Part shown: positions 3,516 to 48,971 of the stretch, piece after piece
How positions within the stretch are numbered: the stretch's first letter is position 1
Layout: each line of letters begins with the position of its first letter
Translations under genes and position numbers: made by a program
From: Candidatus Nomurabacteria bacterium GW2011_GWB1_43_19
GTDB lineage: Bacteria > Patescibacteriota > Minisyncoccia > Phycocordibacterales > UBA9973
Assembly: GCA_000999465.1 (NCBI GenBank)
Contig: LCGB01000001.1
Location: forward strand, 1 to 57,214
DNA length: 57,214 bases
Direction of reading: 5' to 3'
The notes under the pieces: model-generated
What the model was told of the DNA's origin: nothing
The model's database searches: none
The model's input: the letters and a program-made list of their open reading frames with translations, nothing else

Positions 3516-4337
3516 TTATTTTTTCAAATCAGAAAAACGTTTAATTGATAATTCGAGATAATCTTTCTCAGAATCAATACCAATAAATTTTCTTCCATTA
3601 ACTATAGACGCCAGCCCTGTTGTTGAACTTCCTGTAAAAGGATCTAAAACAACATCACCTTTATTGGTGCTAGAAAGAACAATACGCTTTAGTAAATCTA
3701 GGGGTTTTTGAGTTGGGTGTTTCCCAAATTTTTTTTCTTCTGGTTTAGGCGTCCCCATAGACCAAACCGACCGCATTTGAAGACCTGACTTTTTAAGCTT
3801 ATCTTCCGGCCAATTTCCGTCTTTCATTTCTTTGTAATTAAAAGTGTGCTTTGCCTTTTTATCTTTTCTTACCCAAATAATTGTCTCATGGCTGGCAGTA
3901 AAAAAACGACAACTCAAATTAGGAGAAGCGTTGGGTTTGAACCACGATATGTCGTTGAGAATATGATATCCAAGCGACTGCAAGGCGTGTCCACATTGAT
4001 AAATTGAATGGTAGGTGCCGCTTACCCATAAAGTACCATTTGGCTTTAAAACTCGCCTGCAGGCCTGTAGCCATCGGTAATGAAATTCGTAGTCGTCTAT
4101 AAAACCTTTACTTATATCCCATTTTCCTTTGTTTACGCTGACCATTCGGCCCGCATGCACGGTAAATCCGCCATTAGAAAGGTTGTAAGGGGGGTCCGCA
4201 AAAATCATATCTACAGAATCTTCTGGGAGTTGATTTAAAATATCTAGGCAATCTCCATGATATAAAACAAAATTGTCTTTATTGAAATAAGGTTTGTTTT
4301 TAACTATTGAAAGTATTTTTCTGTCGATTACTACCAT
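3516..4337 (-). CDS. Beta-class DNA methyltransferase (DPPY; N6-adenine/N4-cytosine type, DpnA-like layout)
   Basis: 273 aa with FADPPYNL (motif IV) preceding HPTQKP and VLDPFTGSSTTG (motif I), the order typical of beta-class amino-MTases. Specificity cannot be inferred. Confidence 0.9.
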   Translation of the reverse strand: MVVIDRKILSIVKNKPYFNKDNFVLYHGDCLDILNQLPEDSVDMIFADPPYNLSNGGFTVHAGRMVSVNKGKWDISKGFIDDYEFHYRWLQACRRVLKPNGTLWVSGTYHSIYQCGHALQSLGYHILNDISWFKPNASPNLSCRFFTASHETIIWVRKDKKAKHTFNYKEMKDGNWPEDKLKKSGLQMRSVWSMGTPKPEEKKFGKHPTQKPLDLLKRIVLSSTNKGDVVLDPFTGSSTTGLASIVNGRKFIGIDSEKDYLELSIKRFSDLKK

Positions 4338-4356
4338 ATGTCTATTATATCATTTC

Positions 4357-4923
4357 TTAGTATTTCCTTATCACCGCTTTGACGATTGCGTTGATGTTGA
4401 GCGAATGTTCCGGATATATCGGCTGGTAGTTTTTGTTGGCCGGTTCAAGCCACACCTTGCCACCCTTTTTGCGGAGATATTTCATCGTGAACTCCCCGTC
4501 CACTTCGGCGATGACGATATCTCCGTCCTTGGCCTGGTTGGTCTTCTCCACCAGAACCATGTCCCCTTTTTTGATATGGGCGTCAATCATAGAATCCCCA
4601 TCAACTTCCAGCATATAAGTTAGCGGCTTGTTCCTAATAAGCAGGTCGTCCAGGTTGACTGTATCCGCCAATTCTTCCTCCACCGTAGCTGGCAGTCCGG
4701 CGGTAACGGAACCCGGAAAAGGAATCTCGCCAAAGAGTTTGCTCGGAATCAATCTCCCCAGGTGGTCCTTGGCTACCAGTCCTGCATCCTTCAATTTCTC
4801 CACCACCCGAAAAACGGCATTCTTGGACTTGAAGCCGAAAAGCGAGAGCATTTCGGAATAACTCGGCATTCTTTTATTTTTCGAGTAGAATGACTCCAGT
4901 TTGTTCTGGTAAATATTACGCAT
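4357..4923 (-). CDS. lexA: LexA-like SOS repressor (S24 peptidase)
   Basis: 188 aa with an N-terminal wHTH, the cleavage-region motif GSVTAGLP, the catalytic Ser in VDGDSM and Lys in FTMKYL. Confidence 0.85.
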   Translation of the reverse strand: MRNIYQNKLESFYSKNKRMPSYSEMLSLFGFKSKNAVFRVVEKLKDAGLVAKDHLGRLIPSKLFGEIPFPGSVTAGLPATVEEELADTVNLDDLLIRNKPLTYMLEVDGDSMIDAHIKKGDMVLVEKTNQAKDGDIVIAEVDGEFTMKYLRKKGGKVWLEPANKNYQPIYPEHSLNINAIVKAVIRKY

Positions 4924-4939: not shown

Positions 4940-5167
4940 CTAGGCGAAGGAGGAGCTATTGCTTTTTAAAATATCTTTCCGAAAAAATAAATTGGCAAAT
5001 CTATTCATCAAACTTCTCCGGGTATGATAGCGGACCTTGCGGAGGAGCAATTTGTGTTCCCGGGCCTCTTTGAGGTAATTATCTCCGCGGACGATTTTCT
5101 GGTCTATTATCTTGTTAATCCTTTGAATCTCTTTTTCAATTGATTTTAAGTATTGTTTTTGCGACAT
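4940..5167 (-). CDS. Small basic hypothetical protein, first gene of the lexA operon
   Basis: 75-aa ORF 16 nt upstream of lexA on the same strand and directly downstream of the LexA-box promoter. I recognise no family. Confidence 0.5.
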   Translation of the reverse strand: MSQKQYLKSIEKEIQRINKIIDQKIVRGDNYLKEAREHKLLLRKVRYHTRRSLMNRFANLFFRKDILKSNSSSFA

Positions 5168-5303: not shown

Positions 5304-5822
5304 ATGCGCTCAAAGAAGAAAGGATTTACTCTCATAGAACTCTTGATTGTTGTGGCAATCATTGGAGTGTTGGCTAGTGTGGTTTTGGCATCTCTTAATA
5401 GTGCTCGTGCTAAGGCCAGAAATGCCAACAGAATATCCGGCATCAAACAAATAATTACCGCTTTTAATCTTGCCTATACTGCTGCTTGGCCCATTAATAA
5501 TTCTGGTGCTTGGGCTTGTATTAGCGCTACTTGTTATAACGGCTTTGCTTCATATGTGGCTGTTCCAAACATAGACGCTTTTTTTACGCCCTATATGCCT
5601 TCGAAGCCCATCGACCCTGCCGGCGGATCAACTAATAGATTCGGGGGGGTTATATATAGTCAGTGGGTGGGAGGTACCAGCCCATATGATGGACATATTG
5701 AACCTGCGGGAAATTACATTTATTGGGCGGTTGAACCTCCACTGACTCCGACCTCTTGCGGTCCCGGAAAGATTTGGAATGCGGGAGCGGATTCCGTTAA
5801 CTGTCATTTTAATTTTGAGTAA
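5304..5822 (+). CDS. Type IV pilin-like protein (prepilin N-terminal methylation motif)
   Basis: Internal ATG at 5304 gives MRSKKKGFTLIELLIVVAIIGVLASVVLASLNSARAKAR. This is a class III signal peptide with G-F-T-L-I-E, and I prefer it to the 5214 start in the ORF track. Confidence 0.8.
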   Translation: MRSKKKGFTLIELLIVVAIIGVLASVVLASLNSARAKARNANRISGIKQIITAFNLAYTAAWPINNSGAWACISATCYNGFASYVAVPNIDAFFTPYMPSKPIDPAGGSTNRFGGVIYSQWVGGTSPYDGHIEPAGNYIYWAVEPPLTPTSCGPGKIWNAGADSVNCHFNFE

Positions 5823-6238: not shown

Positions 6239-7828
6239 TCACTGCGTGACCTTCGGGCGGTATTGAATGGCTTCCAGGATATGATTGGACTCCACTTCGG
6301 AAGAACTTTCCAGGTCGGCGATGGTGCGGGCAATTTTAATGACCCGGTGGTAGGCGCGGGCGGAAAGACCCAAGCGTTCGGCGCTGTCGTCCAGCAGGTC
6401 CCGCACTTTCAGGGAAAGTTTGACCATGGAGGACAGGTCTTTCACATTCATTTCGCTGTTGGTCTTTTTTCTACCAGAGGCGGATCCACCTTGGGCGGAA
6501 AATCTGTTTTTTTGAATTTCCCGCGCTTGCATTACCCTCGCTTTTATTTTTTCGCTCCGCTCGCCGTTTCCTTCTCCGCCCAATTTTTTATAGTCCACAT
6601 TTCCAACCGATACCCATAAATCAATGCGGTCCATTATTGGTCCGGATAATTTTCTTCTATAGCGGTCTAGGTCGGAGGGCTTACAGACACATTCTTTCTT
6701 TTTACTGCCCAAATTTCCACAAGGACAAGGATTCATGGCCGCGACTAGGATGAAATTGGAGGGAAAAATAGCCGTGCCTTTGGCGCGAGAAATTGAAACA
6801 ATATTGTCTTCAAGCGGCTGGCGGAGCGATTCTATTACCCTCTTTTCAAATTCCGGAAATTCGTCCAGAAACAAAACTCCGCGGTGCGCCAGCGTCACTT
6901 CTCCCGGCTTCGGAAAAGTTCCCCCGCCGATAATCGCCACATAAGACGAAGTATGATGAGGGGCGCGGAAGGGCGGAAAGCAAACGAGTTCTCCTTCCAG
7001 GTTTCCGGCCACCGAATGAATGCCGGTTATTTCAAGAACTTCTTCCATACCCAAATCCGGCAAGAGTTGCGAAAATGCCCGCGCCAGCATCGTCTTACCG
7101 GTGCCCGGCGGACCATACATGGCAATATTGTGCCCGCCGGCCGCCGCAATTTCCAGTCCGCGCTTGGCGCCTTCCTGTCCGCGAACATCGGAGAAATCCC
7201 CGTCTTTTGTTCCCTTTTTGTAACTGATTGCTGTTTTCGGCTGTTGAGGTATTTTCGTTCCCGACGCTCTAACTTTGTTGGAGGTCGGGACCCCGACCCT
7301 TTTGGGCGTCGGGGCAAGATGCTCCGCCACTTCTTTCAAACTGCTGGCTCCGAAAACTTTTATGCCTTCAACCAGCGCTGCCTCTGCCGCATTTTCTTTC
7401 GGCAAATATATTTCTTCAAAACCGAGCCGTCTGGCCTCTTGAGCGAGCGGCAGGGCGCCGCGAATTCGGCGGAGTGTGCCGTCCAACCCTAGCTCGCCTA
7501 GGAAAATCTTTTTCTCCGAATTGAATTTGATGTCTCCCGAGGCGAGCATATACGAGAGCGCGATGCCGAGGTCAAAAAACGGCCCCTCTTTTTTTAAATC
7601 GGCCGGCGAGAGTGATACTATTATTTTCTGGTTCTGCGCTTTGGGAGATTTGTAACCGGAATTTTTTATTGCCCCGCTGACGCGGTCTTTGGATTCATCC
7701 ACCGCTTTATCCGGCAAGCCGACAACATTAAAAGCGTGAAGTGTTCCTTTGGAAATATCCACCTCAATCGTTACGATGGCGCCCTTAAGCAAATTAACTT
7801 GCGCCGAATAAACTTTTGCAAAGCTCAT
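6239..7828 (-). CDS. comM: Mg-chelatase-like AAA+ ATPase ComM/YifB
   Basis: 529 aa with an N-terminal Lon-protease-like domain, Walker A GPPGTGKT, Walker B LFLDEF and a C-terminal Mg-chelatase subunit ChlI-like domain. Confidence 0.9.
   Translation of the reverse strand: MSFAKVYSAQVNLLKGAIVTIEVDISKGTLHAFNVVGLPDKAVDESKDRVSGAIKNSGYKSPKAQNQKIIVSLSPADLKKEGPFFDLGIALSYMLASGDIKFNSEKKIFLGELGLDGTLRRIRGALPLAQEARRLGFEEIYLPKENAAEAALVEGIKVFGASSLKEVAEHLAPTPKRVGVPTSNKVRASGTKIPQQPKTAISYKKGTKDGDFSDVRGQEGAKRGLEIAAAGGHNIAMYGPPGTGKTMLARAFSQLLPDLGMEEVLEITGIHSVAGNLEGELVCFPPFRAPHHTSSYVAIIGGGTFPKPGEVTLAHRGVLFLDEFPEFEKRVIESLRQPLEDNIVSISRAKGTAIFPSNFILVAAMNPCPCGNLGSKKKECVCKPSDLDRYRRKLSGPIMDRIDLWVSVGNVDYKKLGGEGNGERSEKIKARVMQAREIQKNRFSAQGGSASGRKKTNSEMNVKDLSSMVKLSLKVRDLLDDSAERLGLSARAYHRVIKIARTIADLESSSEVESNHILEAIQYRPKVTQ
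6472..6498. repeat. GGATCC-centred double-hairpin element, degenerate copy inside comM
   Basis: TACCAGAGGCGGATCCACCTTGGGCGG, which in gene sense encodes SAQGGSASGRKK. It belongs to the same family as 11183, 21800 and 31497. Confidence 0.75.
7260..7313. repeat. Intragenic alternating CCCGAC/GTCGGG hairpin cluster in the comM linker
   Basis: Units are CCCGACGC (7260), GTCGGG (7284), CCCGAC (7292) and GCGTCGGG (7306), which can form nested or tandem hairpins. The cluster encodes part of the variable linker PTPKRVGVPTSNKVRASG. Confidence 0.5.
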
Positions 7829-11172: not shown

Positions 11173-13368
11173 TTAATTATTTCCGCCCGAGGCGGATCCG
11201 CCTTTGGCGGAGAAGAAATTTTTATCCGCTTCTTTGATGGACAGGCCGATTCTGCCTCTTTCCAGGTCAATATTTATAATCTTCACCGGCACAATCATGC
11301 CTTCTTTTATTATACTGCCAACATTCTCCACGCGCCATGGCGCTATTTCGGAAATATGCACCATGCCATCGATGAAATCGTTTAACCGCACAAAGGCTCC
11401 GAAGTCGGCGACTTTCACGACTTCACCCTTGAGCATTTCACCTACCTGAAATTCGCGGGTCATTTCTTCCACGATTGCCTTGGCTTTCGCGGCCGAATCG
11501 TCCCGGCCAGTCAGATAAACAGTGCCGTCGTCCTCAATGGTTATTTCCGCTCCCGTCCTTTCCTTTATATCTTTGATAGTTTTTCCTCCCCCGCCGATGA
11601 CCAGTCCGATTTTATCCGGATTGATTTTGATTATCAAAATTTTCGGAGCATTGGGGGAAATATTCGCCCGCGGTTTCGGAATTTCTTTTTCAATCCTATC
11701 TAAAATGGCCAGCCGCGCGGATTTCCCCTGTTTCATCGCCTCGCCCAGTATTTTTATCGGCACGCCCTCCACCTTCACATCAAGCTGGATGGCGGTAACG
11801 CCGTTCCGGGTGCCGGCAATTTTGAAATCCATATCACCATAATGATCTTCCGGTCCCTGAATGTCGGTCAAAATTTTATATCTGTCATCGGACTCGTACA
11901 TTAGACCCATGGCAATGCCGGCCACCGGCGCCTTAATAGGCACACCGCCGTCCATCAGAGCCAGAGTAGAAGCGCAGATTGATGCTTGAGAAGTGGAACC
12001 GTTGGAAGCCATTGACTCGGAAACAATCCGGATGGTGTACGGAAATTCCATCGCCGTTGGCAGCACCATCTCCAGTGCTTTTTCGGCGAGGGCTCCGTGT
12101 CCGACTTCCCGGCGGTTAGTAAATCCGGCCCGGCCCACTTCTCCGGACGAGTAAGGGGGGAAGTTGTAATGATGCATGAATCTTTTTTCTTCTTTGAGCT
12201 GCAACCCGTCAACCAAATTCCTGTCTTCCGGTCCGCCCAAGGTCAAAACCGAGAGGACATGCGTCCCTCCGCGGTAGAAAATTCCCGAACCGTGGAGAAT
12301 GCTGGAGAGTTCCCCGGCTTGCGCGTAGAGGTCGCGAAGTTCATCCATCTTCCGGCCGTCGGCGCGCTTGTTTTGCTCTATCGCGCTCTTATGCAGAATA
12401 TCGTTTTCCGTATCGTCAAACAAATCGTCTTCCAGGGCAAAGTCCTCTCGGTCCGGGAATTTTTCGCTGTAGTATTCTCTTGCCAAATTGTTCCAAGTAG
12501 TATGTAAGGCATCTATTTTTTCTTTGCCCGCCTCTGCGTGGCCGAAGCCCGCTTCGGCGAGGCGAAGGCCCGCTTCTCCGAAAAGCGCTTCTTCTATGTG
12601 AGGCAGGATGTTTTCGTTAAATAAAATGACAGATTCGGGAGAAATCGTTTCTTTTTCTATTGCTCTTTTCTCTTTCCCTATTTCAGCCATTATTTTCTTC
12701 TGAAAATCCTCCAGTTTGGCTATTTCCCGGCTGGCTTCTTCCAGCGCCGCTTCCAGTTCCGCCTCGGCGATTTGGTGAGCGGACGCCTCAATCATATTTA
12801 TCTTGCCGTCTTTGCCGCAGACCGTCAGGTCAAATTTATAGGGCGCATCGTCTTCCAGGCGCAAGGACTGTGGAGGGTTGATTTGGAGTCCATTGCCGTC
12901 ATACTTGCCGATACGCACGCAGCCGATGGGGCCATTCCAAGGAATATTAGAAACGGAAAGCGCCAAGGATGCGGCGTTTACCGCTAAAATTGTCGGGTCG
13001 TTATCGTCAACGGAAAGAACCGTCACAATTACCTGTACCGCGTGACGAACCGACTGATCAAAAAGCGGGCGCAGGGTACGGTCTATCACCCGGCTGGCCA
13101 AGATGGCCTCCTCCGACGGCTTGCCTTCTCGGCGGACAAAACGGGAGCCGAGAATTTTTCCGGCCGCGTAAAACTTTTCCGTATAATCAACCGTCAGATT
13201 GAAGTATCCTAAACCCTGCTGTTTATCCTTGGACATGCAGGCGGTGGCCAAGACAATCGTCTCTCCGCATTTCAGGATTACCGAACCATGCGCCTGTTCC
13301 GCTAAGTCGCTAAAAACGGCCGTTAAAGTTTTGCCTCCGATTTCCACGCTATACTCTTTTTTCTTCAT
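11173..13368 (-). CDS. pnp: Polyribonucleotide nucleotidyltransferase (PNPase)
   Basis: Two RNase PH domains, KH (GGGGKTIKDI) and S1 (GEVVKVADFGAFVRL). I prefer ATG at 13368 (MKKKEYSVEIGG) to the TTG at 13389. Confidence 0.9.
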   Translation of the reverse strand: MKKKEYSVEIGGKTLTAVFSDLAEQAHGSVILKCGETIVLATACMSKDKQQGLGYFNLTVDYTEKFYAAGKILGSRFVRREGKPSEEAILASRVIDRTLRPLFDQSVRHAVQVIVTVLSVDDNDPTILAVNAASLALSVSNIPWNGPIGCVRIGKYDGNGLQINPPQSLRLEDDAPYKFDLTVCGKDGKINMIEASAHQIAEAELEAALEEASREIAKLEDFQKKIMAEIGKEKRAIEKETISPESVILFNENILPHIEEALFGEAGLRLAEAGFGHAEAGKEKIDALHTTWNNLAREYYSEKFPDREDFALEDDLFDDTENDILHKSAIEQNKRADGRKMDELRDLYAQAGELSSILHGSGIFYRGGTHVLSVLTLGGPEDRNLVDGLQLKEEKRFMHHYNFPPYSSGEVGRAGFTNRREVGHGALAEKALEMVLPTAMEFPYTIRIVSESMASNGSTSQASICASTLALMDGGVPIKAPVAGIAMGLMYESDDRYKILTDIQGPEDHYGDMDFKIAGTRNGVTAIQLDVKVEGVPIKILGEAMKQGKSARLAILDRIEKEIPKPRANISPNAPKILIIKINPDKIGLVIGGGGKTIKDIKERTGAEITIEDDGTVYLTGRDDSAAKAKAIVEEMTREFQVGEMLKGEVVKVADFGAFVRLNDFIDGMVHISEIAPWRVENVGSIIKEGMIVPVKIINIDLERGRIGLSIKEADKNFFSAKGGSASGGNN
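11183..11210. repeat. GGATCC-centred double-hairpin element, copy at the pnp C-terminus
   Basis: CCGCCCGAGGCGGATCCGCCTTTGGCGG, the exact reverse complement of 31497-31524. It encodes the terminal SAKGGSASGGNN* of PNPase. Confidence 0.85.
12541..12576. repeat. Intragenic tandem hairpins in pnp (GAAGC-CC-GCTTC units)
   Basis: GCCGAAGCCCGCTTCGGC followed by GAAGGCCCGCTTC. They encode LRLAEAGFGHAEAG in the variable inter-domain helix region. Confidence 0.45.
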
Positions 13369-13399
13369 ATTATTCTCGCCCCGGGCCAAGCCGGAGGGT

Positions 13400-13520: not shown

Positions 13521-14030
13521 TTATTTCCCGCCCAGTAGATATTTTCTCGGATTTTCGGAAAGGTCAATAAAGTCGTCCGCCGCTTCGCGTAGTTTTCCGG
13601 AAGTTGATTTGCCGAAGGAAACAACTTCCACCTGCACACCAATCGTCTGCAGATACTCCACCAGCGGAACAAAATCTCCGTCACCAGAGACAATAATAAC
13701 CGAATCCAGGCGCGGGGACATTTTAATCGCATCCACCGCCAGCCCCACATCCCAATCCGCTTTCTTGGCGCCCCCGGCGAATATTTGTAAGTCCTTTGTT
13801 TTGGTTTCAATGCCCAGCTTGGCCAGCGCTTCAAAAAAGTTCTTCTCGTCTCCCGCTTCGGTGGTGATGACATACGCCACTGCGCGTACCAGTTTCCTTC
13901 CCGCCACCGCGTCTTTCAAAACCGCGCCGAAATTAACCCGCGCCTGGTAGAGGTTGCGGGCCGAATGGTATAAATTTTGCGTATCAATAAAAACACCGAC
14001 TCTTTGTTCTTTATGTTTTATTACTGTCAT
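13521..14030 (-). CDS. NYN-domain (LabA/DUF88-like) protein
   Basis: 169 aa with VGVFIDTQNLYHSAR and VIIVSGDGDFVPLVEYLQ, the typical NYN/LabA acidic motifs. Its start overlaps the MTase stop by 4 nt. Confidence 0.8.
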   Translation of the reverse strand: MTVIKHKEQRVGVFIDTQNLYHSARNLYQARVNFGAVLKDAVAGRKLVRAVAYVITTEAGDEKNFFEALAKLGIETKTKDLQIFAGGAKKADWDVGLAVDAIKMSPRLDSVIIVSGDGDFVPLVEYLQTIGVQVEVVSFGKSTSGKLREAADDFIDLSENPRKYLLGGK

Positions 14031-14854
14031 ATTTTAATTAATGTATTATGAATAATATTTTTGCTTTTAACAATATCTTTAAAAAGACCTGCCTCCCCTT
14101 TTCTATTTGAAACCCTTTCATTGATTATTTTATAATAATTCTTATTTATCTCAAAACCAATATAATTTCTCTTTGCATTAATTGCCGCTATGGCAGTCGT
14201 GCCTGTTCCCATAAAAGGATCTAGAACAATACCTCCGACAGGACAACTGGCCTTTATAATTCTTTCAATTATTTCTAGCGGTTTCTGTGTTGGATGATTT
14301 TGTCTCTCGGGAGCTTGCGCATGAATCCGACTTACACTCCATATATCTTTTGGATTATAACCAATCTCAAGCCATTTTTTACCGATGAAAATTGATCTTG
14401 TTCTAGCTTTTTTTGTTTCTTCGTCGTATGGAATTCTAATACTATCAATATCAAAAAAATATTTCTTATTCTTTTTAACAAAAAACCCTATATTGTCATG
14501 CACCGAAGAAAATTTTCTCGTCGATCCGCCCATACTTGGCACCCTTCTATCCCAAATTACTTCATTAATCATCAACATTTTTGTCTTTATGTAAGAAAAA
14601 ATTTCTGGGCTATATTGCCAGCTGAGAAAAACATAAAAACTCCCTGTGTCTTTAAGTTTTGGAATTACCGAATCTATCCATTTATATGTCCACTCTAAAT
14701 ATTCTTTAGAATTAAGCTTATCGGAATTATTTTCATAGTCTTTACCTAAACAATAAGGTGGGTCTGCAACGATTAAATCCAAAGAATTATCTGGTATTTT
14801 TTTTATGCCAATTAAACAATCCTCATTAAAAATTCTATTTTTTATTTTTTCCAT
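14027..14854 (-). CDS. Beta-class DNA methyltransferase (DPPY)
   Basis: 275 aa with IVADPPYCL, then NHPTQKP and VLDPFMGTGTTA. The sequence is AT-rich. Confidence 0.9.
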   Translation of the reverse strand: MEKIKNRIFNEDCLIGIKKIPDNSLDLIVADPPYCLGKDYENNSDKLNSKEYLEWTYKWIDSVIPKLKDTGSFYVFLSWQYSPEIFSYIKTKMLMINEVIWDRRVPSMGGSTRKFSSVHDNIGFFVKKNKKYFFDIDSIRIPYDEETKKARTRSIFIGKKWLEIGYNPKDIWSVSRIHAQAPERQNHPTQKPLEIIERIIKASCPVGGIVLDPFMGTGTTAIAAINAKRNYIGFEINKNYYKIINERVSNRKGEAGLFKDIVKSKNIIHNTLIKI

Positions 14855-20117: not shown

Positions 20118-20612
20118 TTACGGATACAAAACTTCATAGAAGCCGGCCGCAGGAGTAGGCACGGAGCCCCATGTATACGGCGTAATCTGGTAAGCGGCCG
20201 TTTCAAAATATACTCCAAGCTTCGGCGTACCGTCGGGATACCCTGTATAGAAATAAATATCTCCTTGAGGACCCACAAGGCTACAAGTTGAGGAGAGATA
20301 AGGAATAAGACCCCCGTCTCCTCCTGTCCCGCAAGGCGGGTATCCGGTTGTACCGGCATAATTATTGTCACTAATCCAATAGACCGTATCGTAACTTCTG
20401 GCAGGATAATAGCCGTGGTCATTATAATACAATTCTAAAGCATTTTTTATAGACCGGATATCGCCAAGGCGTCGCGCGTCGCGCGCTTTGGCTCGCGCGG
20501 AATTAAGAGAAGCCAAAACCACACTAGCCAACACTCCAATGATTGCCACAACAACCAAGAGTTCTATGAGAGTAAATCCTTTCTTAAAATTTATCTTAAA
20601 AACTGAATACAT
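20118..20612 (-). CDS. Type IV pilin-like protein (second paralogue)
   Basis: 164 aa with KKGFTLIELLVVVAIIGVLASVVLASLNSARAKAR. The N-terminal coding DNA is 82/84 identical to pilin 1. Confidence 0.8.
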   Translation of the reverse strand: MYSVFKINFKKGFTLIELLVVVAIIGVLASVVLASLNSARAKARDARRLGDIRSIKNALELYYNDHGYYPARSYDTVYWISDNNYAGTTGYPPCGTGGDGGLIPYLSSTCSLVGPQGDIYFYTGYPDGTPKLGVYFETAAYQITPYTWGSVPTPAAGFYEVLYP

Positions 20613-20619
20613 TGTTTAA

Positions 20620-22230
20620 TCATGTACTATTTTTTCTTACTCCGTGTTTAGTATGCAACTTCTCAATCTCTTGCTCTTCTAAACTTTCTTTTTTCTCTTT
20701 TCCGCGCTCGCCCAGGGTCCGGAGCTCCGCATCGCCCAGCACATTGAGCGATTTCGTCAGTTCCGAGAGATGCTCTACTGTATTTTTCTCCGGAGCGTCC
20801 AGGATTTCTTCCAAAAGCGCGTGCAAAATCCATCCCATCCTCGGTCCCGGCTTAATCTCTAGTTCTTTTATCATAAATTCTCCGTCAATTTTCAGTTGGC
20901 CGACGGAAATCGGGTCCCGCAAGGCCTCTTCAATCATCGCGAAATACTTGCGCAGGCGGTAGGGCACTTCTTTTTTCTTCATTCCCACCCGATCACATTC
21001 ACGGACATTCATTAAGAGCCAGATATTCTCCACACTGACTTTAGTGATGATCCTCCGCACGGCCGAGAGCGTAATTAACTCCGTGTCGGAGAAGAACATA
21101 TGGTTACGGACAAGCTTTTCCACCAGTTCGGTCTCCTTTTTCGAGAACCGGAGCCGTTCCATTATTTTTTTCGCCATCCGCGCGCCGATAACCTCGTGGC
21201 CGTAGAATGTGTATTTCTTTTTTGAATTTATTTTCGGAGCCGGATGTGCAAAATCGAGTCCGTGTCGGAGCCCGCTTGCGGGTAAAGCGGCGAGATTTTG
21301 CATATCCGACGAAGAATTAGCATTTCTTCTACTTCTCGGCTTCCCGATATCGTGAAAAAGCGCCGATAACCTTATTTCTAAAGGCCATTTCTTGTCCGCC
21401 GCATGCTGGACGGCATGGAGTAAATGCTCCCAAACGTCATAGATATGCTCCCCCAGTTGTTCGCAACCCACCCCTTCCAGAAGCTCCGGAATGGTATTTT
21501 TCAGCAAGCCGAGCTTCTGCAACATAACAATTCCGCTGGCTGGATTGTCCGACATGATTATTTTTACAAACTCGTCCCGAATCCGCTCAAAGGATATTTT
21601 TTGGAGCAAGTCGGCATTTTTTAAAATACTTTCGGTTGTTTCATACGACACAGAAAAGTTAAGTTGGCAAGCCAAACGGACAGCCCGCAGCATGCGGAGC
21701 GCATCCTCGGTAAACCGGTCATCCGGATTGCCTACTGCTTTTAACGTTTTATCTTGGATGTCCTTTATGCCCCCGAAAAGGTCAACTATCTGTCCTTTTC
21801 CGCCTGAGGTGGATCCGCCTTTGGCGGAAGAGTTCAATGCGAGGGCATTAATAGTGAAATCACGTCTTTTAAGGTCGTCTTCCAGCTTGTCGCTGAACTT
21901 TACCTCATCCGGATGTCTAAAATCGCTATATTTTGCCTCAATTCTATAGGGGGTAACCTCAACGACTCTTAATGTTTCTTGTGAAACATCTTCCTGAATA
22001 ACAGCGACTGTTCCAAAGGCATTCTCATATACTGTCTTTTTAAACAGGGAGATAATTTCCTCCGGTTTGGCATTGGTTGCGACATCCCAGTCCTTAGGTT
22101 CTGTTCCCATTACAAGGTCGCGGACGCATCCGCCGACCAGATATGCCTCAAAACCCGCTTTTTCAAGTGTGTCTGTTACATGTGAAACTTCTTTGGGTAT
22201 TTTTTTTATTAAACTGTTGATGTTTTCCAT
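20620..22230 (-). CDS. cca: CCA-adding enzyme / poly(A) polymerase family with HD domain
   Basis: 536 aa with the nucleotidyltransferase motif LVGGCVRD...DWD, RRDFTINA and HD-domain LFHDIGKP. It carries two palindromic insertions. Confidence 0.85.
   Translation of the reverse strand: MENINSLIKKIPKEVSHVTDTLEKAGFEAYLVGGCVRDLVMGTEPKDWDVATNAKPEEIISLFKKTVYENAFGTVAVIQEDVSQETLRVVEVTPYRIEAKYSDFRHPDEVKFSDKLEDDLKRRDFTINALALNSSAKGGSTSGGKGQIVDLFGGIKDIQDKTLKAVGNPDDRFTEDALRMLRAVRLACQLNFSVSYETTESILKNADLLQKISFERIRDEFVKIIMSDNPASGIVMLQKLGLLKNTIPELLEGVGCEQLGEHIYDVWEHLLHAVQHAADKKWPLEIRLSALFHDIGKPRSRRNANSSSDMQNLAALPASGLRHGLDFAHPAPKINSKKKYTFYGHEVIGARMAKKIMERLRFSKKETELVEKLVRNHMFFSDTELITLSAVRRIITKVSVENIWLLMNVRECDRVGMKKKEVPYRLRKYFAMIEEALRDPISVGQLKIDGEFMIKELEIKPGPRMGWILHALLEEILDAPEKNTVEHLSELTKSLNVLGDAELRTLGERGKEKKESLEEQEIEKLHTKHGVRKNST
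21241..21308. repeat. 68-nt imperfect palindrome inside the cca HD domain
   Basis: CGGATGTGCAAAATC...(inner CCGCTT-GCGGGTA-AAGCGG)...GATTTTGCATATCCG. It encodes an extra segment between HDIGKP and FYGHE. Confidence 0.65.
21800..21827. repeat. GGATCC-centred double-hairpin element, copy inside cca
   Basis: CCGCCTGAGGTGGATCCGCCTTTGGCGG, which in gene sense encodes SSAKGGSTSGGKG. Confidence 0.85.
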
Positions 22231-28883: not shown

Positions 28884-30971
28884 GTGGTGACCGACAACGC
28901 ACATCACTTAAGCGGCTTAAATAACGAACAAAAGGAAGCGGCGCTTCATATGAAGGGTCCGCTTCTTATTGTGGCCGGCGCGGGCGCGGGAAAAACCAAA
29001 ACAATAACGCACCGAATTGTAAATCTAATCAAAAACGGGGTGGCGCCGGAGAAAATTTTGGCCGTAACTTTTACCAACAAGGCGGCCAAGGAAATGCGGG
29101 AGAGAATTGTCTCGGAAATAGAAAAGAACGCAAAAGGACAGGACAGAATTCCATTTATCAGCACTTTTCATTCTTTGGGGGTCCATATTATCAAGGAAAA
29201 TGCCCGGCTGCTCGGGCTGACCAAATATTTCACCATTTTGGACGAAGGGGATTCAACTTCAATGATAAAAGAAATAGAAAAAGAGCTCGGTCTGGACCTG
29301 AAACAATACGACCCGAAAAGGATAAAAAACATAATCGCGCGCGAGAAGGGAAAATTCACGCATCTGGCGGACTATGCGGAAAGAGAGAAGGGGACGCTGG
29401 GCAGAATCGTCAGCCAAATCTGGGGTCCGTATGAAAAAAGAAAAACAAAGGAGAACGCGCTTGATTTTGACGACTTGCTCCTGAAAACGACCAAACTGCT
29501 CCAAGACAATACGGAAATCAGAAAAATTTATCAGGAAAAATGGGAATACATTCACGTAGACGAATACCAGGACACCAACGAAGTGCAATATCTGATGTCC
29601 AAACTGCTTTCCGAGAACAACAAAAACATCTGCGTGGTCGGAGACGCCGATCAGAATATTTATTCCTGGCGCGGGGCAAATTTGAAAAATATTTTAAGTT
29701 TTGAAAAAGATTACCCGGACGCGAAAATAATTTTATTGGAGCAAAATTACCGGTCAACGAAAAATATTCTGGAAGCCGCGAATGTTGTTATTAAAAAAAA
29801 TATCTACCGACCGGACAAGAATCTGTTCACCAATAACCCGACCGGAGGAAAAATCGGATTGTATGAAGCCCTAGATGAAACCGACGAAGCGGATTTCGTC
29901 GCGGCAAAAATTTTAGAAACAGCCGAAGCCGTCCATGAAGGACAAAATGTTTTCGAGCGAAGCATTGCGCAGGCTGGCGAGCCGAGCATAGCAATTCGCC
30001 AGCAGGCGAATATGCGCGCTGAGTCCGAGAATATTTTGTCCGAAATAGCAGTTCTTTACCGCGCCAACTTCCAGTCGCGCGCGCTTGAGGAGGCGATGCT
30101 CCGGCACAACATTCCATACCAGGTTTTGGGAGTAAAATTTTTTGAAAGAAAAGAAATTAAAGACACTTTGGCCTATCTGCGCGCGGCGCTGAACCCGGAG
30201 AGTTTGTCCGACATAAAGAGAATAATCAATTTCCCGGCCCGGGGCATCGGCAAAGTGACCTTGGCGAAAATTTTCGCCAATGATACGGAAAATCTGCCAA
30301 TAAAAACAAAAATCAAAATTAATAATTTTTACGGAGTATTGGAAGAAATAAAAGAAAAAGTAAAAACAGAAAAAGCGAGCCGAGTAATAAAATTTGTGGT
30401 GAAACATTCCGGCATTGAACGGGAGCTTTCAGAAGGCACGGAAGAAGATACGGAAAGATTGGAGAATGTAAAAGAACTGGCAACTCTGGCGCTCAAATAT
30501 GACGACTTGGCAAATGGACTTGGTGTTGAAAGGCTTTTGGAGGACGCATCACTTGCTTCCGACCAAGATTCTTTGATAATAAATTCGGCCAGTTCCGTTA
30601 GAGGCCGCGAGGACCCGCAGCGTGCTCTTGCCTCTAACGGGGTGAAGTTAATGACAGTGCACGCTTCCAAGGGGCTTGAATTCAAATATGTTTTTGTTGC
30701 CGGCCTGGAAGACAGACTTTTCCCCCACGAGCGAAGAAATGAAGACAGCCCTGCCTCCGCCGGTGGCTACGGCGAGGCGCAGGAAGAGGAACGCCGGCTT
30801 TTCTATGTGGCGCTCACGCGCGCAAAAGAAAAGTTGTTTTTGTCTTTTGCCAACTTCCGCACCATTTTCGGAGCGCGCAACATAAATGCTCCCTCGGAAT
30901 TTATTAACGACATCCCTGCAGGCCTGTTAGAAAAAGAAGGCGAGCATGGAGTAAAAACAATTTATATATGA
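28884..30971 (+). CDS. pcrA: UvrD/PcrA-family ATP-dependent DNA helicase
   Basis: GTG start, 695 aa, with AGAGAGKTKTI, VDEYQDTN, VGDADQNIYSWRGA, QNYRST, VHASKGLEF and YVALTRA. Confidence 0.9.
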   Translation: MVTDNAHHLSGLNNEQKEAALHMKGPLLIVAGAGAGKTKTITHRIVNLIKNGVAPEKILAVTFTNKAAKEMRERIVSEIEKNAKGQDRIPFISTFHSLGVHIIKENARLLGLTKYFTILDEGDSTSMIKEIEKELGLDLKQYDPKRIKNIIAREKGKFTHLADYAEREKGTLGRIVSQIWGPYEKRKTKENALDFDDLLLKTTKLLQDNTEIRKIYQEKWEYIHVDEYQDTNEVQYLMSKLLSENNKNICVVGDADQNIYSWRGANLKNILSFEKDYPDAKIILLEQNYRSTKNILEAANVVIKKNIYRPDKNLFTNNPTGGKIGLYEALDETDEADFVAAKILETAEAVHEGQNVFERSIAQAGEPSIAIRQQANMRAESENILSEIAVLYRANFQSRALEEAMLRHNIPYQVLGVKFFERKEIKDTLAYLRAALNPESLSDIKRIINFPARGIGKVTLAKIFANDTENLPIKTKIKINNFYGVLEEIKEKVKTEKASRVIKFVVKHSGIERELSEGTEEDTERLENVKELATLALKYDDLANGLGVERLLEDASLASDQDSLIINSASSVRGREDPQRALASNGVKLMTVHASKGLEFKYVFVAGLEDRLFPHERRNEDSPASAGGYGEAQEEERRLFYVALTRAKEKLFLSFANFRTIFGARNINAPSEFINDIPAGLLEKEGEHGVKTIYI
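29940..30041. repeat. ~100-nt imperfect palindrome inside pcrA
   Basis: Outer arms GGACAAAATGTTTTCG / CGAGAATATTTTGTCC and inner arms GCTGGCGA / TCGCCAGC. It encodes an extra ~35 aa before the conserved IAVLYRANFQSR. Confidence 0.6.
30595..30640. repeat. 46-nt hairpin insertion inside pcrA (CCGTTAGA termini)
   Basis: CCGTTAGAGGC - 24 nt - GCCTCTAACGG (perfect 11-bp arms). It encodes SVRGREDPQRALASNG just before LMTVHASKG. Confidence 0.65.
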
Positions 30972-32059
30972 AACTCGTCGAAGATACAACTTTTGGAGGG
31001 GGTTTGCCGAGCGACGGCGAGGCAACTTCAGGATTTTTTAATCTTCAAAAAATCCGTACCCAGAAAAAGTTTGTACCGAGAAAGAGTTTAGGGCAAAATT
31101 TTTTAAAATCGGAACCGGCTTTAAAAAAAATTATTGAGGCGGGAGAAGTAAAAAAGGACGATATAATTTTGGAAATCGGACCGGGCAGGGGCAAGCTGAC
31201 GGAAAAACTTTTGGAGCGCGCCGGGCTCGTCATCGCCGTGGAAAAAGACCGCGAACTTTTTGAGTTTTTGAAAACAAAGTTTGAGAAAGAAATAGAAACA
31301 AATGCTTTTGTGTTAATTCATGGGGACGTATTGAATTTTGATGTTCGCGAAACAATTCTCAAATTTTTCTCAGGTCCTCGGATTTCCGGGTCCCTATCCC
31401 GGCCAGACCATTCGAAAAATTTAGAATTGCTTCGCTATAAAATCATCGCCAACATTCCTTACAACATTACCGGAGCGATACTTAGAAAGTTTTTGTCCGC
31501 CAAAGGCGGATCCGCCTCGGGCGGAAAAAAATTTCTGACCGCCCGGAACCAGCCGGAGCGGATGGTGTTGATGGTCCAGAAAGAGGTGGCTGAAAGAATT
31601 CTTGGCAGGAGAGAAAATATTTCATACTCAAAACCTAGCCATGGCAGAAAATTGGGTAAGGAAAGTATATTATCTATTTCCGTCAAGGCCTACGGGGAGC
31701 CCAAAATGATAATGAAAGTGCCGGCGCGATATTTCTCCCCGACGCCGCAAGTAGACTCGGCGGTGATTTTGATAAAAAATATTTCTAGGAAAAATTTTGA
31801 AATCCCAGCCCAGCCCTCCCCAAAGGAGAGGGAGAGATTTGGAGCCTCCCCTTTTGGGGGAGGTATGGAGGGGGTAAATGAAGAAAGATTCTGGAAAATA
31901 GTAAAAGCGGGCTTTGCGCACAAGAGAAAAAAACTCTCCGGCAACCTGAAAAACCTTGTTTCTTTGGAAAAAACGAACTTGGCGGTTTTTAAAGACAAAA
32001 GGGCGGAGGATTTATCCCTTACGGACTGGATTTTACTGGCCCGCACACCTAATTTATAA
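30968..32059 (+). CDS. rsmA: 16S rRNA (adenine1518/1519-N6)-dimethyltransferase RsmA/KsgA, expanded by repeat insertions
   Basis: SLGQNFL, LEIGPGRGKLT, IIANIPYNITG and a C-terminal helical domain. It is 363 aa (family members I recall are ~260-290 aa). ATGA overlaps the pcrA stop. Confidence 0.85.
   Translation: MKLVEDTTFGGGLPSDGEATSGFFNLQKIRTQKKFVPRKSLGQNFLKSEPALKKIIEAGEVKKDDIILEIGPGRGKLTEKLLERAGLVIAVEKDRELFEFLKTKFEKEIETNAFVLIHGDVLNFDVRETILKFFSGPRISGSLSRPDHSKNLELLRYKIIANIPYNITGAILRKFLSAKGGSASGGKKFLTARNQPERMVLMVQKEVAERILGRRENISYSKPSHGRKLGKESILSISVKAYGEPKMIMKVPARYFSPTPQVDSAVILIKNISRKNFEIPAQPSPKERERFGASPFGGGMEGVNEERFWKIVKAGFAHKRKKLSGNLKNLVSLEKTNLAVFKDKRAEDLSLTDWILLARTPNL
30990..31069. repeat. 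80-nt two-hairpin module, copy B (inside the rsmA 5' coding region)
   Basis: 67/80 identical to 1865-1944. The hairpin GGATTTTTT-7nt-AAAAAATCC is conserved, and the first hairpin differs by paired substitutions. Confidence 0.75.
31497..31524. repeat. GGATCC-centred double-hairpin element, copy inside rsmA
   Basis: CCGCCAAAGGCGGATCCGCCTCGGGCGG encodes SAKGGSASGGKK. It is 28/28 identical to the pnp copy in gene sense. Confidence 0.85.
31814..31863. repeat. CCCTC/GAGGG + CCTCCCC/GGGGAGG double hairpin inside rsmA
   Basis: CCCTCCCCAAAGGAGAGGG then CCTCCCC-TTTT-GGGGGAGG. It encodes PSPKERERFGASPFGGGMEG. Confidence 0.65.
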
Positions 32060-45794: not shown

Positions 45795-46550
45795 TTATTT
45801 TTCCCCGACGCTATAATTTTTAGTAAAGGTCGGGGTCCCGACTTCACGTCGGGACTTAACATAAATCTGTTGTCCCACCATAAAAATGTTACTGGTAATC
45901 CAATAAAGCGCCACGGCACCGGAAATACTGTAAGCGATAAAAGCAACGATAAACGGGAATATATATTTCATTTGCGTATGCATACTTTTGGCAAAAGAGT
46001 CCGAAAAGGAGCCGGTGGAGCCGCTTGGGGTAGGGGCGGGCTTTGGCATAAAGTGGGCCTGTAAATACTGGGACACCCCCGCCAGAATTGCCAAAACCAT
46101 ACTCTTCTGGCTTATATCTATAACCCCCAGGAAAATCATATTTATACTTTCGGGAATATGAATAAAAGAATAGAGAAGCCCGTTTTCAAAACTAAGCCCT
46201 TTGAAGAAAACAAAATACAGAGCAAAAATAATGGGAATTTGGATTAACACCAAGAGGCACCCGGAAAACGGGTTGGTTTTGTGTGTTTTATAAAGTTCAA
46301 AAGTCAGCTTGGCCTGTTCTTCTTTGCTTTTACCGCTTGTCTTTATTTTATTAAGTTCGGGAGCCAGCAGATTCATCTGGGCCTGGCTTTCAATAGATTT
46401 TTGGGAAAGAGGAAAAAGTATGATTTTAACGAGAATGGTGAGAACAATAACCGCGACCCCAACGTCTCCGCCAGGGATAATTGACACCAAAAAGGCCAAG
46501 GCGTTCAATAATGGCTTATATAAAATGGTATCCCAGATGCTTGAAAGCAT
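45795..46550 (-). CDS. yidC: Membrane protein insertase YidC (short Gram-positive type)
   Basis: 251 aa, 5 TM, with conserved ...NPFSGCLLVLIQIPIIFALY... and position upstream of jag. Confidence 0.9.
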   Translation of the reverse strand: MLSSIWDTILYKPLLNALAFLVSIIPGGDVGVAVIVLTILVKIILFPLSQKSIESQAQMNLLAPELNKIKTSGKSKEEQAKLTFELYKTHKTNPFSGCLLVLIQIPIIFALYFVFFKGLSFENGLLYSFIHIPESINMIFLGVIDISQKSMVLAILAGVSQYLQAHFMPKPAPTPSGSTGSFSDSFAKSMHTQMKYIFPFIVAFIAYSISGAVALYWITSNIFMVGQQIYVKSRREVGTPTFTKNYSVGEK

Positions 46551-46649
46551 TGTCCCATTCTACCCCGAAGTAAAATTTTTAGCAAAATTTACCGCCTTAG
46601 GTGTTGGACACCAAGAATTCGGGTGTCCAACACCTGGAATCACCTGAAA

Positions 46650-46871
46650 CTATTTTACCGGATCTATGTGATTCTTTTGCCAAGGGTGGCAACGCAGGAT
46701 GCGTAAGATTCCTAAATAGACACCTTCAAGGACGCCGTATTTTTTTACCGCTTGTTTGGTGTATTCGGAGCAAGTGGGATAAAAAACACAACTGGGCTTT
46801 TTAAAAAAGCTTATTTTTCTCTGGTAGAAATTAATTAATTTTATTAACAATATTTTTAATTTCATTTTCAA
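46650..46871 (-). CDS. yidD: Membrane protein insertion efficiency factor YidD
   Basis: 73 aa with CVFYPTCSEYTKQAVKKYG...LRILRCHPW, the YidD signature. Confidence 0.8.
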   Translation of the reverse strand: MKMKLKILLIKLINFYQRKISFFKKPSCVFYPTCSEYTKQAVKKYGVLEGVYLGILRILRCHPWQKNHIDPVK

Positions 46872-47157
46872 TAATCAAAGCGTCATCCTGATATCTTTTA
46901 AAAACAAAAACTCCAAGCAGTCCGGCAGGGAAGTATTTGATATGTTTTTTTAAAACAGCATATCCGCGCCTCCTTAACGAATTTCTTTTAACGGCCAACT
47001 TGGCTACATCTTTTGGCGCAACGAAGGAAATGCGGGGAGAAATCGGAGTATTGGTCAATATGAACCTAAAAGAAAAGCAGGAAAAATTCAACGTTTTGCC
47101 TTCTTTAAAGATTCTTTCTACGGCTTTTTTATCAACCCTGTTTTTTTTAGAAAGCAT
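46831..47157 (-). CDS. rnpA: Ribonuclease P protein component
   Basis: ATG at 47157 (MLSKKNRVDKKAVERIFKEGK...). 108 aa, basic, 2 nt after the rpmH stop. Confidence 0.8.
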   Translation of the reverse strand: MLSKKNRVDKKAVERIFKEGKTLNFSCFSFRFILTNTPISPRISFVAPKDVAKLAVKRNSLRRRGYAVLKKHIKYFPAGLLGVFVFKRYQDDALIIENEIKNIVNKIN

Positions 47158-47159
47158 AC

Positions 47160-47294
47160 TTAAACGGATAATTTTTTCCTGCCTTTTTGACGCCTTCTCG
47201 CCAGCACATTCCGGCCGGTTTTTGTTTTGGATCTGACTAAAAATCCGTGGGCCTTGGCTCTTTTTCTCTTTTTTGGTTGATATGTTTGCGACAT
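47160..47294 (-). CDS. rpmH: 50S ribosomal protein L34
   Basis: My translation gives [44 protein letters not shown] (44 aa). It is masked in the ORF track by a longer out-of-frame ORF. Confidence 0.9.
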
Positions 47295-47388
47295 GGTGTG
47301 TAGTATATAACATTATCCACAGTTTATCAACATAGTTAATAAGATTTAAAAGATGTCATTCGGTTTTAAAATAGTATAATAAAAAACC
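47295..47388. promoter_or_regulatory. rpmH-dnaA spacer with a perfect DnaA box (dnaA promoter / part of oriC)
   Basis: TTATCCACA at 47313-47321 followed by the near-box TTTATCAAC. The rpmH<->dnaA arrangement is canonical. Confidence 0.55.
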
Positions 47389-48732: not shown

Positions 48733-48971
48733 ATGTTAATAAAGGGTTAAAAAACAAGGAATAAATAAAGAAAAAGTTGTTGGTAAAAAGGTATAAAAAA
48801 CAAAGTTTAAATTTTATAAACCATAATAGATAAAATAAAAAAAGTTATTAAGTTTATAAAAAACAAAAACAATAAAAAATAACCATATCAAATAAACTTA
48901 AAAAACTTTATCCACTTATAAACACAACTAATATTATTAATAAATTAAATATAAAAGATATAAACAAATAT
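48733..48971. other. Very AT-rich dnaA-dnaN spacer, candidate oriC unwinding region
   Basis: 239 bp made almost entirely of A/T runs, with the near DnaA box TTATCCACT at 48908-48916. Confidence 0.45.

Follow-up and report, generated by a model that had tools for sequence, protein, structure and literature searches.

A 30-nucleotide double-hairpin repeat inserted in frame in housekeeping genes of Nomurabacteria and many other uncultivated bacteria

Four copies of a double hairpin

We analysed a stretch of 57,214 nucleotides (nt) from Candidatus Nomurabacteria bacterium GW2011_GWB1_43_19 (contig LCGB01000001.1, positions 1 to 57,214), hereafter the window, in which four genes each carry, in frame, one copy of the same short GC-rich hairpin element. 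The genes yidC, rnpA, dnaA and dnaN are clustered at 45795-50069, which places the chromosomal origin region within the window. The four element copies are all found on one side of this cluster, at a distance of 16-41 kb. The host genes, identified with Pfam, and the copies within them are as follows.

6239-7828, minus strand: comM (Mg_chelatase and ChlI domains)
6470-6499, minus strand: element copy in comM, partly decayed, reading S-A-Q-G-G-S-A-S-G-R
11173-13389, minus strand: pnp, polynucleotide phosphorylase (PNPase); the likely start is the ATG at 13368
11182-11211, minus strand: element copy in pnp, at the extreme C-terminus of PNPase, reading ...NFF-SAKGGSASGG-NN before the stop codon
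20620-22230, minus strand: cca, CCA-adding enzyme (PolyA_pol head and HD domain)
21799-21828, minus strand: element copy in cca, reading NS-SAKGGSTSGG-KGQ, with one mismatch
30968-32059, plus strand: ksgA/rsmA (RrnaAD)
31496-31525, plus strand: element copy in ksgA/rsmA, reading FL-SAKGGSASGG-KKF

The pnp copy is situated downstream of the S1 domain predicted by Pfam. The comM copy has 3 mismatches over the 26 specified positions of the element. The first ~35 codons of the rsmA open reading frame (ORF) overlap a separate repeat of ~100 nt, and the coding status of this part may be doubtful. The ~100-nt repeat occurs at 1843-1963, after the RNase Y gene, and at 30968-31088, at or before the rsmA start, with 75-78% identity, and includes a GGATTTTTT...AAAAAATCC hairpin.

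The original prediction described a 28-bp element with 5-bp stems. Its pattern matches the window four times, at 6471-6498, 11183-11210, 21800-21827 and 31497-31524, which are the reported places once the start of the comM copy is moved from 6472 to 6471; the comM 28-mer differs from the pattern at two positions. In 100 dinucleotide-preserving shuffles of the window the pattern was matched 0.00 times. The central GGCGGATCCGCC, allowing up to one mismatch, was found only at these four sites (0.08 expected), and an nhmmer profile built from 134 copies gave no fifth copy in the window, whether intact or decayed. An Rfam scan of the window returned no family except four tRNAs. The pnp and rsmA copies are identical over 28 of 28 positions in gene sense, and all four copies read S-A-x-G-G-S-A/T-S-G-G/R in the same sense, as had been described. 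We considered a link to BamHI-type restriction and rejected it, GGATCC being observed 8 times in the window against 7.1 expected.

To define the unit we used two samples. A genome scan with the pattern CCRCCNNNGGYGGATCCRCCNNNGGYGG, taking one genome per GTDB species, gave at least 120 loci, and the genome sample drawn from it consists of 134 copies with up to 4 mismatches. One locus, from Streptomyces (L108), was discarded as a chance match inside a GC-rich repeat, leaving at least 119 genuine loci from ~108 different metagenome-assembled genomes (MAGs). A peptide-level search of metagenomes with the pattern TCNGCNAARGGNGGNTCNGCNTCNGGNGG, in which every third codon position was left free, gave 120 listed matches on at least 119 contigs. 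All counts given for either sample are among the matches listed. The base preceding the 28-mer is T in 119 of 125 pooled copies and the base following it is A in 120 of 125, at positions that the pattern left free. The conserved unit is therefore a 30-nt quasi-palindrome, TCCGCC-nnA-GGCGGA followed directly by TCCGCC-Tnn-GGCGGA, rather than the 28 bp first proposed. It consists of two tandem 15-nt hairpins, ten codons in all, each with a stem of 6 bp and not 5 (TCCGCC/GGCGGA) and a 3-nt loop, the loops being mostly RRA and TYY. A unit of 36 nt including TTT...AAA was rejected, as the empty cca site described below retains TCT and AAA, and a larger parent element with the 15-nt halves as its termini was not supported, isolated halves being rare.

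The original prediction had left open whether the element is a pair of tandem hairpins or one palindrome. The minimum-energy RNA fold is a single long hairpin interrupted by a 2x2 internal loop (-21.7 kcal/mol), and as DNA the two-hairpin fold comes close to it in energy. Covariation separates the two possibilities. Because one pair in each stem was allowed to vary in the search pattern (R and Y), the test is unbiased. In hairpin 1 we observed that 3 of 9 A-variants were compensated by T (Fisher p = 9e-4), and in hairpin 2 that 3 of 8 were compensated (Fisher p = 3e-3). Among the pairings of the long hairpin there were 0 co-variant cases. A single long hairpin or cruciform is thus favoured by free energy but not by covariation, and two separate hairpins are the supported structure. 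We also found rarer sibling double hairpins with the same 15+15-nt layout and other stems, for example CTCGCCAAAGGCGAG followed by TGCGCCTCTGGCGCA and CCACCCTACGGGTGG followed by CCACCCGTAGGGTGG, in four places:

L078, 755-784: sibling double hairpin
L096, 2306-2335: sibling double hairpin
L106, 2008-2037: sibling double hairpin
L062, 6892-6921: sibling double hairpin

Their compensated stems include CCACCC/GGGTGG, TCAGCC/GGCTGA, CTCGCC/GGCGAG and CCCTCC/GGAGGG. That these stems are entirely different, yet specific to each hairpin, supports the double-hairpin structure together with the covariation, and suggests that the element belongs to a wider superfamily.

The stems are conserved as nucleotide sequence and not as peptide. 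Of the 120 metagenome matches, 110 to 120 have the canonical base at each of the seven wobble positions of the stems, whereas the loop-codon wobble position is free (C in 45, T in 32, G in 28 and A in 15). This bears out the proposal that the element is conserved at the level of DNA. Single stem changes, read in gene sense, are of the G.U type in 9 cases and of the A.C type in 12. The similar frequency argues against selection on a fold of the sense mRNA, which we rejected as the basis of the structure, and fits a structure that is needed in DNA.

Insertion sites, reading frame and hosts

The cca gene provides a clear empty site. When 120 orthologues with 70-80% identity were compared, the majority had NALAL(D/N)S-KGH at the position of the element. 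The empty allele reads AAT TCT^AAA GGA CAT, with the insertion point marked by the caret, and the window gene reads AAC TCT (TCC GCC AAA GGC GGA TCC ACC TCA GGC GGA) AAA GGA CAG; the filled allele is 30 nt longer and nothing is duplicated. In an AlphaFold2 model of the window CCA enzyme the element forms residues 135-144 at the tip of a beta-hairpin, with a pLDDT of less than 50 for residues 137-144. At the protein level a gap of ten residues separates the window KsgA from that of B. subtilis (6ifs) and the window ComM from that of Legionella (8rxd), and likewise GltB of an Omnitrophota MAG from a solved structure (7mfm).

A second case is uvrC of Doudnabacteria, in which the empty allele reads AAT CTT^AAA TCT^AAA ATC. 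The first marked point is filled in two orthologues and the second in one, with the loop orientation reversed. A further orthologue, P0149 (L131, 10001-10120), is filled one nucleotide off, so that the N-terminus of a real UvrC reads PPKADPPLAD. These alleles stem from no fewer than three independent, clean insertions inside a stretch of ten nucleotides, and P0149 shows that the other reading phase is able to survive. In related lineages the element has thus been inserted repeatedly into one gene at nearly the same point. No target-site duplication was seen at four sets of empty and filled sites in cca and uvrC. The expectation that orthologues would reveal a clean insertion is borne out at exactly 30 nt, or ten amino acids, in DNA for cca and uvrC and as protein gaps for KsgA, ComM and GltB.

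The flanks of the element are distinctive. T occupies positions -3, -2 and -1 in 59, 83 and 62% of copies, respectively, and A mirrors it on the downstream side; the usual junction is YT^AAA, T-rich on one side and A-rich on the other, and this pattern was replicated in the independent metagenome sample. When the flanks were joined across the element, we observed an excess of identity at lag 7 (z = 8.2) and lag 14 (z = 7.7) in the genome sample and again in the metagenome sample (z = 7.6 and 7.2). Tandem heptamers enclose the element in 6-8% of copies, a setting ~25-fold commoner than at random positions. The arrays include aatttct x5, aactttt x4, caatttc x4, aggattt x4 and aaatctt x4, and also gaagatt and caattta. 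Copies embedded in heptamers include the following, among others:

L157, 2951: heptamer-embedded copy
L179, 3922: heptamer-embedded copy
L204, 139: heptamer-embedded copy
L195, 3704: heptamer-embedded copy
L041, 1191: heptamer-embedded copy
L071, 2465: heptamer-embedded copy
L079, 4219: heptamer-embedded copy

A 7-nt direct repeat was present in the flanks of 10 of 125 copies, against 1.0 expected. A 7-bp target-site duplication as a general rule was rejected, the empty sites of cca and uvrC showing clean insertion. In uvrC the heptamers encode a conserved NLKSKILNL and are present in orthologues without the element, and are therefore a preferred target there and not a product of insertion.

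We next consider how the element is read, taking as long an ORF of at least 150 codons. Within the genome sample 71 of 134 copies are codon-aligned inside long ORFs and 10 lie in long ORFs in another phase, mostly at ORF edges or in GC-rich DNA; the remaining 53 are in short ORFs, that is, in intergenic DNA or gene ends. The 120 metagenome copies divide into 62 codon-aligned in sense, 18 codon-aligned in antisense, 16 in another phase and 24 in short ORFs. Both orientations of the codon-aligned phase read S-A-x-G-G-S-A-x-G-G, a short and flexible peptide, and the sense that gives K/E...S is preferred ~3.4:1 over the opposite one. In genic copies loop 1 is mostly a K, E, G or Q codon and never TGA, and loop 2 is a Ser codon in 47 of 71; intergenic copies have a TGA/TCA loop 10 times, both orientations pooled. 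Of the 71 genic copies, 35 are directly preceded by Phe and 39 are directly followed by Lys.

The uniform frame of the four window copies had been put forward as improbable by chance, at (1/6)^3. This argument does not hold. T^AAA sites in the window genes are equally frequent in two phases and missing from the third, because TAA would form there, and the second phase, which is proline-rich, is mostly purged. Together with the palindrome, which gives the same peptide in both orientations, and in the light of the metagenome census, this makes four copies in the same sense unremarkable, the rest being expected from selection acting on the encoded peptide. The related statement that all six frames are free of stop codons is correct for the pnp and rsmA sequence, but the antisense codon-aligned frame of the cca copy reads TGA.

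The bias in phase and loop codons suggests that the element is translated and not removed from mRNA, since removal would make phase and loop codons irrelevant. Its length of ten codons means that the frame is never shifted. The genic copies that survive occupy loops, linkers and termini, many of them close to protein ends, even where the protein is essential, and we infer that the encoded peptide is a tolerated passenger and not a functional motif.

The hosts are unrelated and mostly housekeeping proteins. They include RpoC, two DnaE, DnaG, UvrB, UvrC, Mfd and PIF1, and also PheT, other aminoacyl-tRNA synthetases, MurA, GltB, an E2 acyltransferase and HsdR. All genuine genome loci listed are from MAGs, with no match in an isolate genome. 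By record title the carriers cover many classes of Patescibacteria, Omnitrophota, Kiritimatiellae, Lentisphaerae, Verrucomicrobiota, Planctomycetes, Ignavibacteria (with 1.6-Mb contigs among them), Melainabacteria, Cloacimonadota, Chloroflexota, a Desulfotomaculaceae MAG and MAGs labelled Gammaproteobacteria. Genomes of the Candidate Phyla Radiation (CPR) are generally without GltB and 2-oxoacid dehydrogenase E2 pathways, so the presence of both among the host genes argues that some loci are in non-CPR hosts. The density of copies is 1 per 14 kb in the window, and around other carriers ~1 further copy per 58-75 kb. In IMG/VR the element occurs in 3 of 2.9 million viral contigs, and it was not found in PLSDB plasmids or INPHARED phages. 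Horizontal transfer among co-occurring uncultivated bacteria would account for the spread across phyla.

Outside genes the element also takes part in larger arrangements. In a Kiritimatiellae MAG it is the last module of a ~170-nt composite intergenic repeat. The loci compared here are L003, L006 (with two copies), L034 and L060. This composite is a mosaic of several small GC-rich palindromes and is also met in a Verrucomicrobia context; the Verrucomicrobia MAG of L034 has only the element and its immediate flanks in common with the Kiritimatiellae composite. At L090 (~4955-5005) the element is flanked by CTCCCCCTTT and AAAGGGGGAG and occupies the TTT^AAA loop of a different hairpin repeat, which looks like a nested insertion. 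The ~170-nt mosaic and the L090 nesting recall the organisation of repetitive extragenic palindromic (REP) sequences in bacterial interspersed mosaic elements.

Explanations for spread and maintenance

How the stems are kept bears on every explanation. Among element-carrying cca orthologues, 4-fold sites differ by 50-65% outside the element, and within it at 0-2 of 8-9 sites. Between P0018 and P0049 there are 0 differences at 9 element sites where 51% are expected, a probability of ~0.002. The 4-fold site of the loop is T, T, T, G and A in five sequences. One cca orthologue, P0044, has a decayed copy with 9 of 30 positions changed, all towards A/T, and decayed copies are common among unbiased second copies. 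Stem conservation of this kind requires constraint, homogenisation (selection, ectopic conversion) or independent refilling of a hot spot. Given the hot spot in uvrC, refilling of the cca site is conceivable. A neighbour-joining tree of cca is star-like and does not separate a single ancestral insertion from recurrent ones. Within the window species the same copies are present in 39-47 independent contigs, and the copy is unchanged in the variants that cover each site, 13 for cca, 10 for rsmA and 7 for comM, the decayed comM copy included. The pnp protein cluster holds only the window's own protein, which places the pnp copy outside this comparison.

The explanation that we rank first, and consider on balance probable, is that the element is a minimal, non-autonomous, GC-rich hairpin repeat of 30 bp, a selfish sequence that is mobilised in trans and tolerated in protein loops. 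It would spread through a step that needs each hairpin in single-stranded DNA (ssDNA), with the copying machinery supplied in trans or by the host. Candidates for this machinery would be a hairpin-specific enzyme (HUH/Y1-like or other), or copy-choice at the microhomology of T-run and A-run; both an HUH-type enzyme and transposase-free template switching fit the flanks.

Several observations weigh against this explanation. Pfam gave no transposase, Y1/HUH included, among the 50 ORFs of the window, and no mobilising enzyme has been identified in a search confined to these 57 kb. No movement was seen at comM, cca or rsmA among the species-level variants that cover the sites. The stems are too well conserved, as the cca orthologues are read here, for an insertion that decays passively, which would not show such conservation. 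The rarity of the element in viral contigs and its absence from the plasmid and phage collections point to no vector for its spread across phyla, and several of the MAG labels behind that spread rest on record titles only. Nor does this explanation account for the heptamer preference.

A bolder version, which we regard as a possibility and no better than that, is that two hairpins only constitute the smallest known horizontally spreading mobile DNA, copied by a ubiquitous host function or by a hairpin-specific enzyme shared among episymbiotic and ultra-small bacteria of several phyla, with stems that are actively maintained in essential genes through selection or concerted evolution. If true, this would amount to a natural 'linker-scanning' of proteomes with a preference for tandem heptamers.

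Second in rank, and on our assessment unlikely, is a domesticated or functional cis-element, in which host selection keeps a DNA structure for replication or recombination pausing, or as a site to which a nucleoid- or topoisomerase-type protein binds, an idea put forward for REPs, and the peptide is the price. In its favour, stem 4-fold sites are ~5-fold more conserved than flanking ones at saturated divergence, while the loop site varies without constraint and the element has decayed in one lineage (P0044); the stems are identical across phyla, there are compensatory changes within hairpins, and comM, cca and rsmA each have their copy fixed in the species-level population. However, the same contrast of stem and loop is expected where only intact copies can be copied. 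The copies arrive as hot-spot insertions with varied positions, orientations and phases and did not evolve in situ, their hosts and positions are unrelated, their density is low and variable, and decay is common among the second copies.

Transposase-free copying, ranked third, we hold to be improbable. The element would spread by template switching or by short-patch illegitimate recombination: a nascent strand ending in a T-run would pair beside another copy, either genomic or in DNA that has been taken up, copy the 30 nt and return via the A-run. The symmetric microhomology and the lack of target duplication are as this would predict, the ~25-fold enriched tandem heptamers are prone to slippage, no transposase was found in the window, and the window encodes the competence components ComM and type IV pilins. 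Against it, the microhomology amounts to no more than 1-3 nt, as at the cca site TCT^AAA, which is very little, and the idea does not by itself explain the need for paired hairpins.

It is also very improbable that the peptide is never made, the element being removed from RNA like an intron or skipped in translation like a mitochondrial 'byp'. Removal of 30 nt would keep the frame, the codons GGA, TCC, GCC and GGC recur 15 nt apart as possible take-off and landing codons, and the long fold is a strong hairpin at -21.7 kcal/mol. Nevertheless, ~85-95% of genic copies are codon-aligned, with TGA and Phe codons avoided and K/E...S preferred, the take-off site is not followed by a stop codon, and fungal double-hairpin elements are reported to be kept in transcripts (PMC2800124).

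The two remaining explanations we find barely credible. A functional Gly/Ser linker peptide, ancestral or convergent, would suit the likeness to flexible linkers and the recurrence in loops, including a copy 84 codons into the E2 acyltransferase, a protein with flexible inter-domain linkers, beside the first lipoyl domain; it is refuted by the invariant stem wobble beside free loop wobble, and the palindromic sequence, the intergenic copies, the copy read as PPKADPPLAD and the varying presence among orthologues at 70-80% identity also count against it. An artefact of sequencing, adapters or assembly would fit the restriction of genuine matches to MAGs and the use of GGATCC as a common cloning site, but many studies and assemblers have yielded contigs with the element, some of them of Mb scale (L016, L036 and L087), and it always keeps the host frame, has variable loops, compensatory changes and graded decay, and recurs as the same copies in the independent contigs of the window species.

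Related repeats, neighbouring features and significance

We compared the element with known short repeats. Rickettsia palindromic elements (RPEs) of the RPE-1 type are ~100-150 bp long, and to our knowledge RPEs are confined to Rickettsia. The likeness of concept that had been drawn to them is sound: in both cases a palindromic repeat sits in frame in functional, often essential genes, is co-translated and also occurs between genes. RPEs are described in these terms, and the short RPE-4 and RPE-6 are classed as CGTC-REPs (PMC3733652). The present element differs from them in its sequence and its 30 bp, in its occurrence in many phyla and in having no CGTC tag; RPE sequences were compared by description only.

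REPs and REPINs are likewise GC-rich hairpins of 20-40 bp, often dimers, without target duplication. Intragenic REPs are found especially in genes for replication and repair (Di Nocera et al. 2013, PMC3733652), and the present hosts similarly include DnaE, DnaG, UvrB, UvrC, Mfd and ComM. The REP tags GTAG, CTAC, CGTC and GACG, however, are each found no further than 8 nt from the ends in 2-5 of 269 copies, where chance would give ~12.6, and in their place the flanks are a T-run and an A-run. REPs are extragenic, whereas the present element is mostly genic (codon-aligned in long ORFs in 71 of 134 and 80 of 120 copies), and its two tandem hairpins follow each other without a spacer. REPINs are specific to their lineages and passed on vertically (10.1101/2022.05.22.493013), in contrast to stems that are identical in MAGs of many phyla. 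No RAYT gene was found in the 57-kb window by Pfam.

A further likeness is to the GC clusters and double-hairpin elements of fungal and sponge mitochondria. These are also short GC-rich hairpin modules in AT-richer genomes, with conserved stems and variable loops and with modules of 15-18 nt arranged as tandem double hairpins. In yeast GC42 the stems are conserved below the synonymous rate, the loops are variable and mobilisation is unresolved; the cluster is flanked by AG/ACT direct repeats (PMC4478555). Fungal double-hairpin elements inside genes are translated and stay in the transcript (PMC2800124). The mitochondrial clusters differ in being organellar and mostly intergenic, the present element being chromosomal and bacterial, mostly genic and without duplication at resolved sites, and their sequences are probably unrelated.

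Transposable elements of the miniature inverted-repeat type (MITEs) make target-site duplications. The present element resembles them in being non-autonomous with an inverted-repeat layout, formally two 15-bp inverted halves with no interior. MITEs are 70-300 bp long with terminal inverted repeats of 15-30 bp (PMC3733652). At 30 bp, with no duplication, no interior and no related insertion sequence (IS) found, the element is unlike them, and covariation indicates two hairpins and not paired terminal repeats. With the IS200/IS605 family and its miniature derivatives, the palindrome-associated transposable elements (PATEs), it would share hairpins at both ends, the lack of target duplication and a dependence on ssDNA structure. 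Elements of the IS608 type are cleaved at some distance from the feet of their hairpins and insert 3' of a specific tetra- or pentanucleotide. Here, by contrast, the hairpin feet are the ends of the element and the flanks are symmetric (T-run^A-run); no TnpA gene was found in the window. The element is of the kind of REPs, RPEs and mitochondrial GC clusters and is not a member of any of those families. Our literature search, of incomplete coverage, gave no description of the sequence, the peptide or the phenomenon in CPR bacteria or Omnitrophota, only primers, linkers and analogues. The unusual features of the element are its minimal size, its presence in essential genes across phyla, the maintenance of its stems at the nucleotide level and the preference for heptamers.

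The host genes contain other inserts. At 31802-31864 (rsmA residues 279-299) lies a GC-rich, hairpin-forming segment of 21 codons, IPAQPSPKERERFGASPFGGG, which is missing in P0265 (Nomurabacteria OGI74830.1), an RsmA of the same 90% cluster that is ~95% identical over aligned residues. This presence/absence polymorphism belongs to a different insert family, and indicates that in-frame inserts are dynamic in the lineage. Further in-frame GC-rich hairpin islands in the same hosts are:

12525-12580: island in pnp, peptide EAGLRLAEAGFGHAEAG
21240-21300: island in cca, peptide LPASGLRHGLDFAH
7291-7328: island in comM, peptide APTPKRVGVP
31386-31409: island in rsmA, peptide SGPRISGS

The rsmA and comM islands are at gaps of solved homologues, and the cca island is in a low-confidence region of the model (residues 300-341). 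The CCA orthologues P0001-P0120 contain many short insertions, among which AKALAGKHKGH, SPQPSPLQGEG, LDKGEWPKAEGV, GKGPDRKAGA, RTSNLEPNF and QILNEVEGE recur, and one beta-turn loop of cca has been struck by at least two insert families. These comparisons suggest that Paceibacterota have an entire range of families of in-frame inserts.

Elsewhere in the window GATC is scarce (71 observed against 161 expected by a Markov estimate). Two N6_N4 DNA methyltransferase genes, at 3516-4337 and 14027-14854, each lie beside small unknown genes, one neighbour having a weak PD-(D/E)XK match; the two loci are probably restriction-modification systems. A 45-nt direct repeat (87% identical, 2953-2997 and 4354-4398) flanks the first methyltransferase gene and the adjoining gene. 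A 101-nt inverted repeat (91% identical, 5316-5416 and 20485-20585) is the shared N-terminal coding part (N_methyl, FTLIELLVVVAIIG) of two type IV pilin paralogues.

If confirmed, these findings would mean that identical 30-bp DNA parasites, or symbionts, cross phyla and settle in essential genes of uncultivated bacteria, among them those for RNA polymerase, DNA polymerase III, primase, excision repair and the aminoacyl-tRNA synthetases. For the annotation and modelling of CPR and Omnitrophota proteins, loops reading S-A-x-G-G-S-A-x-G-G, and those of the other insert families, would then be DNA-level insertions and not lineage-specific features of the protein. The element would also serve as a sequence-defined marker of horizontal exchange between episymbionts and co-occurring bacteria. 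Finally, with its clear empty and filled sites and its hot spots, it would offer a very small substrate on which to test how REPs, RPEs and mitochondrial GC clusters are mobilised and maintained.

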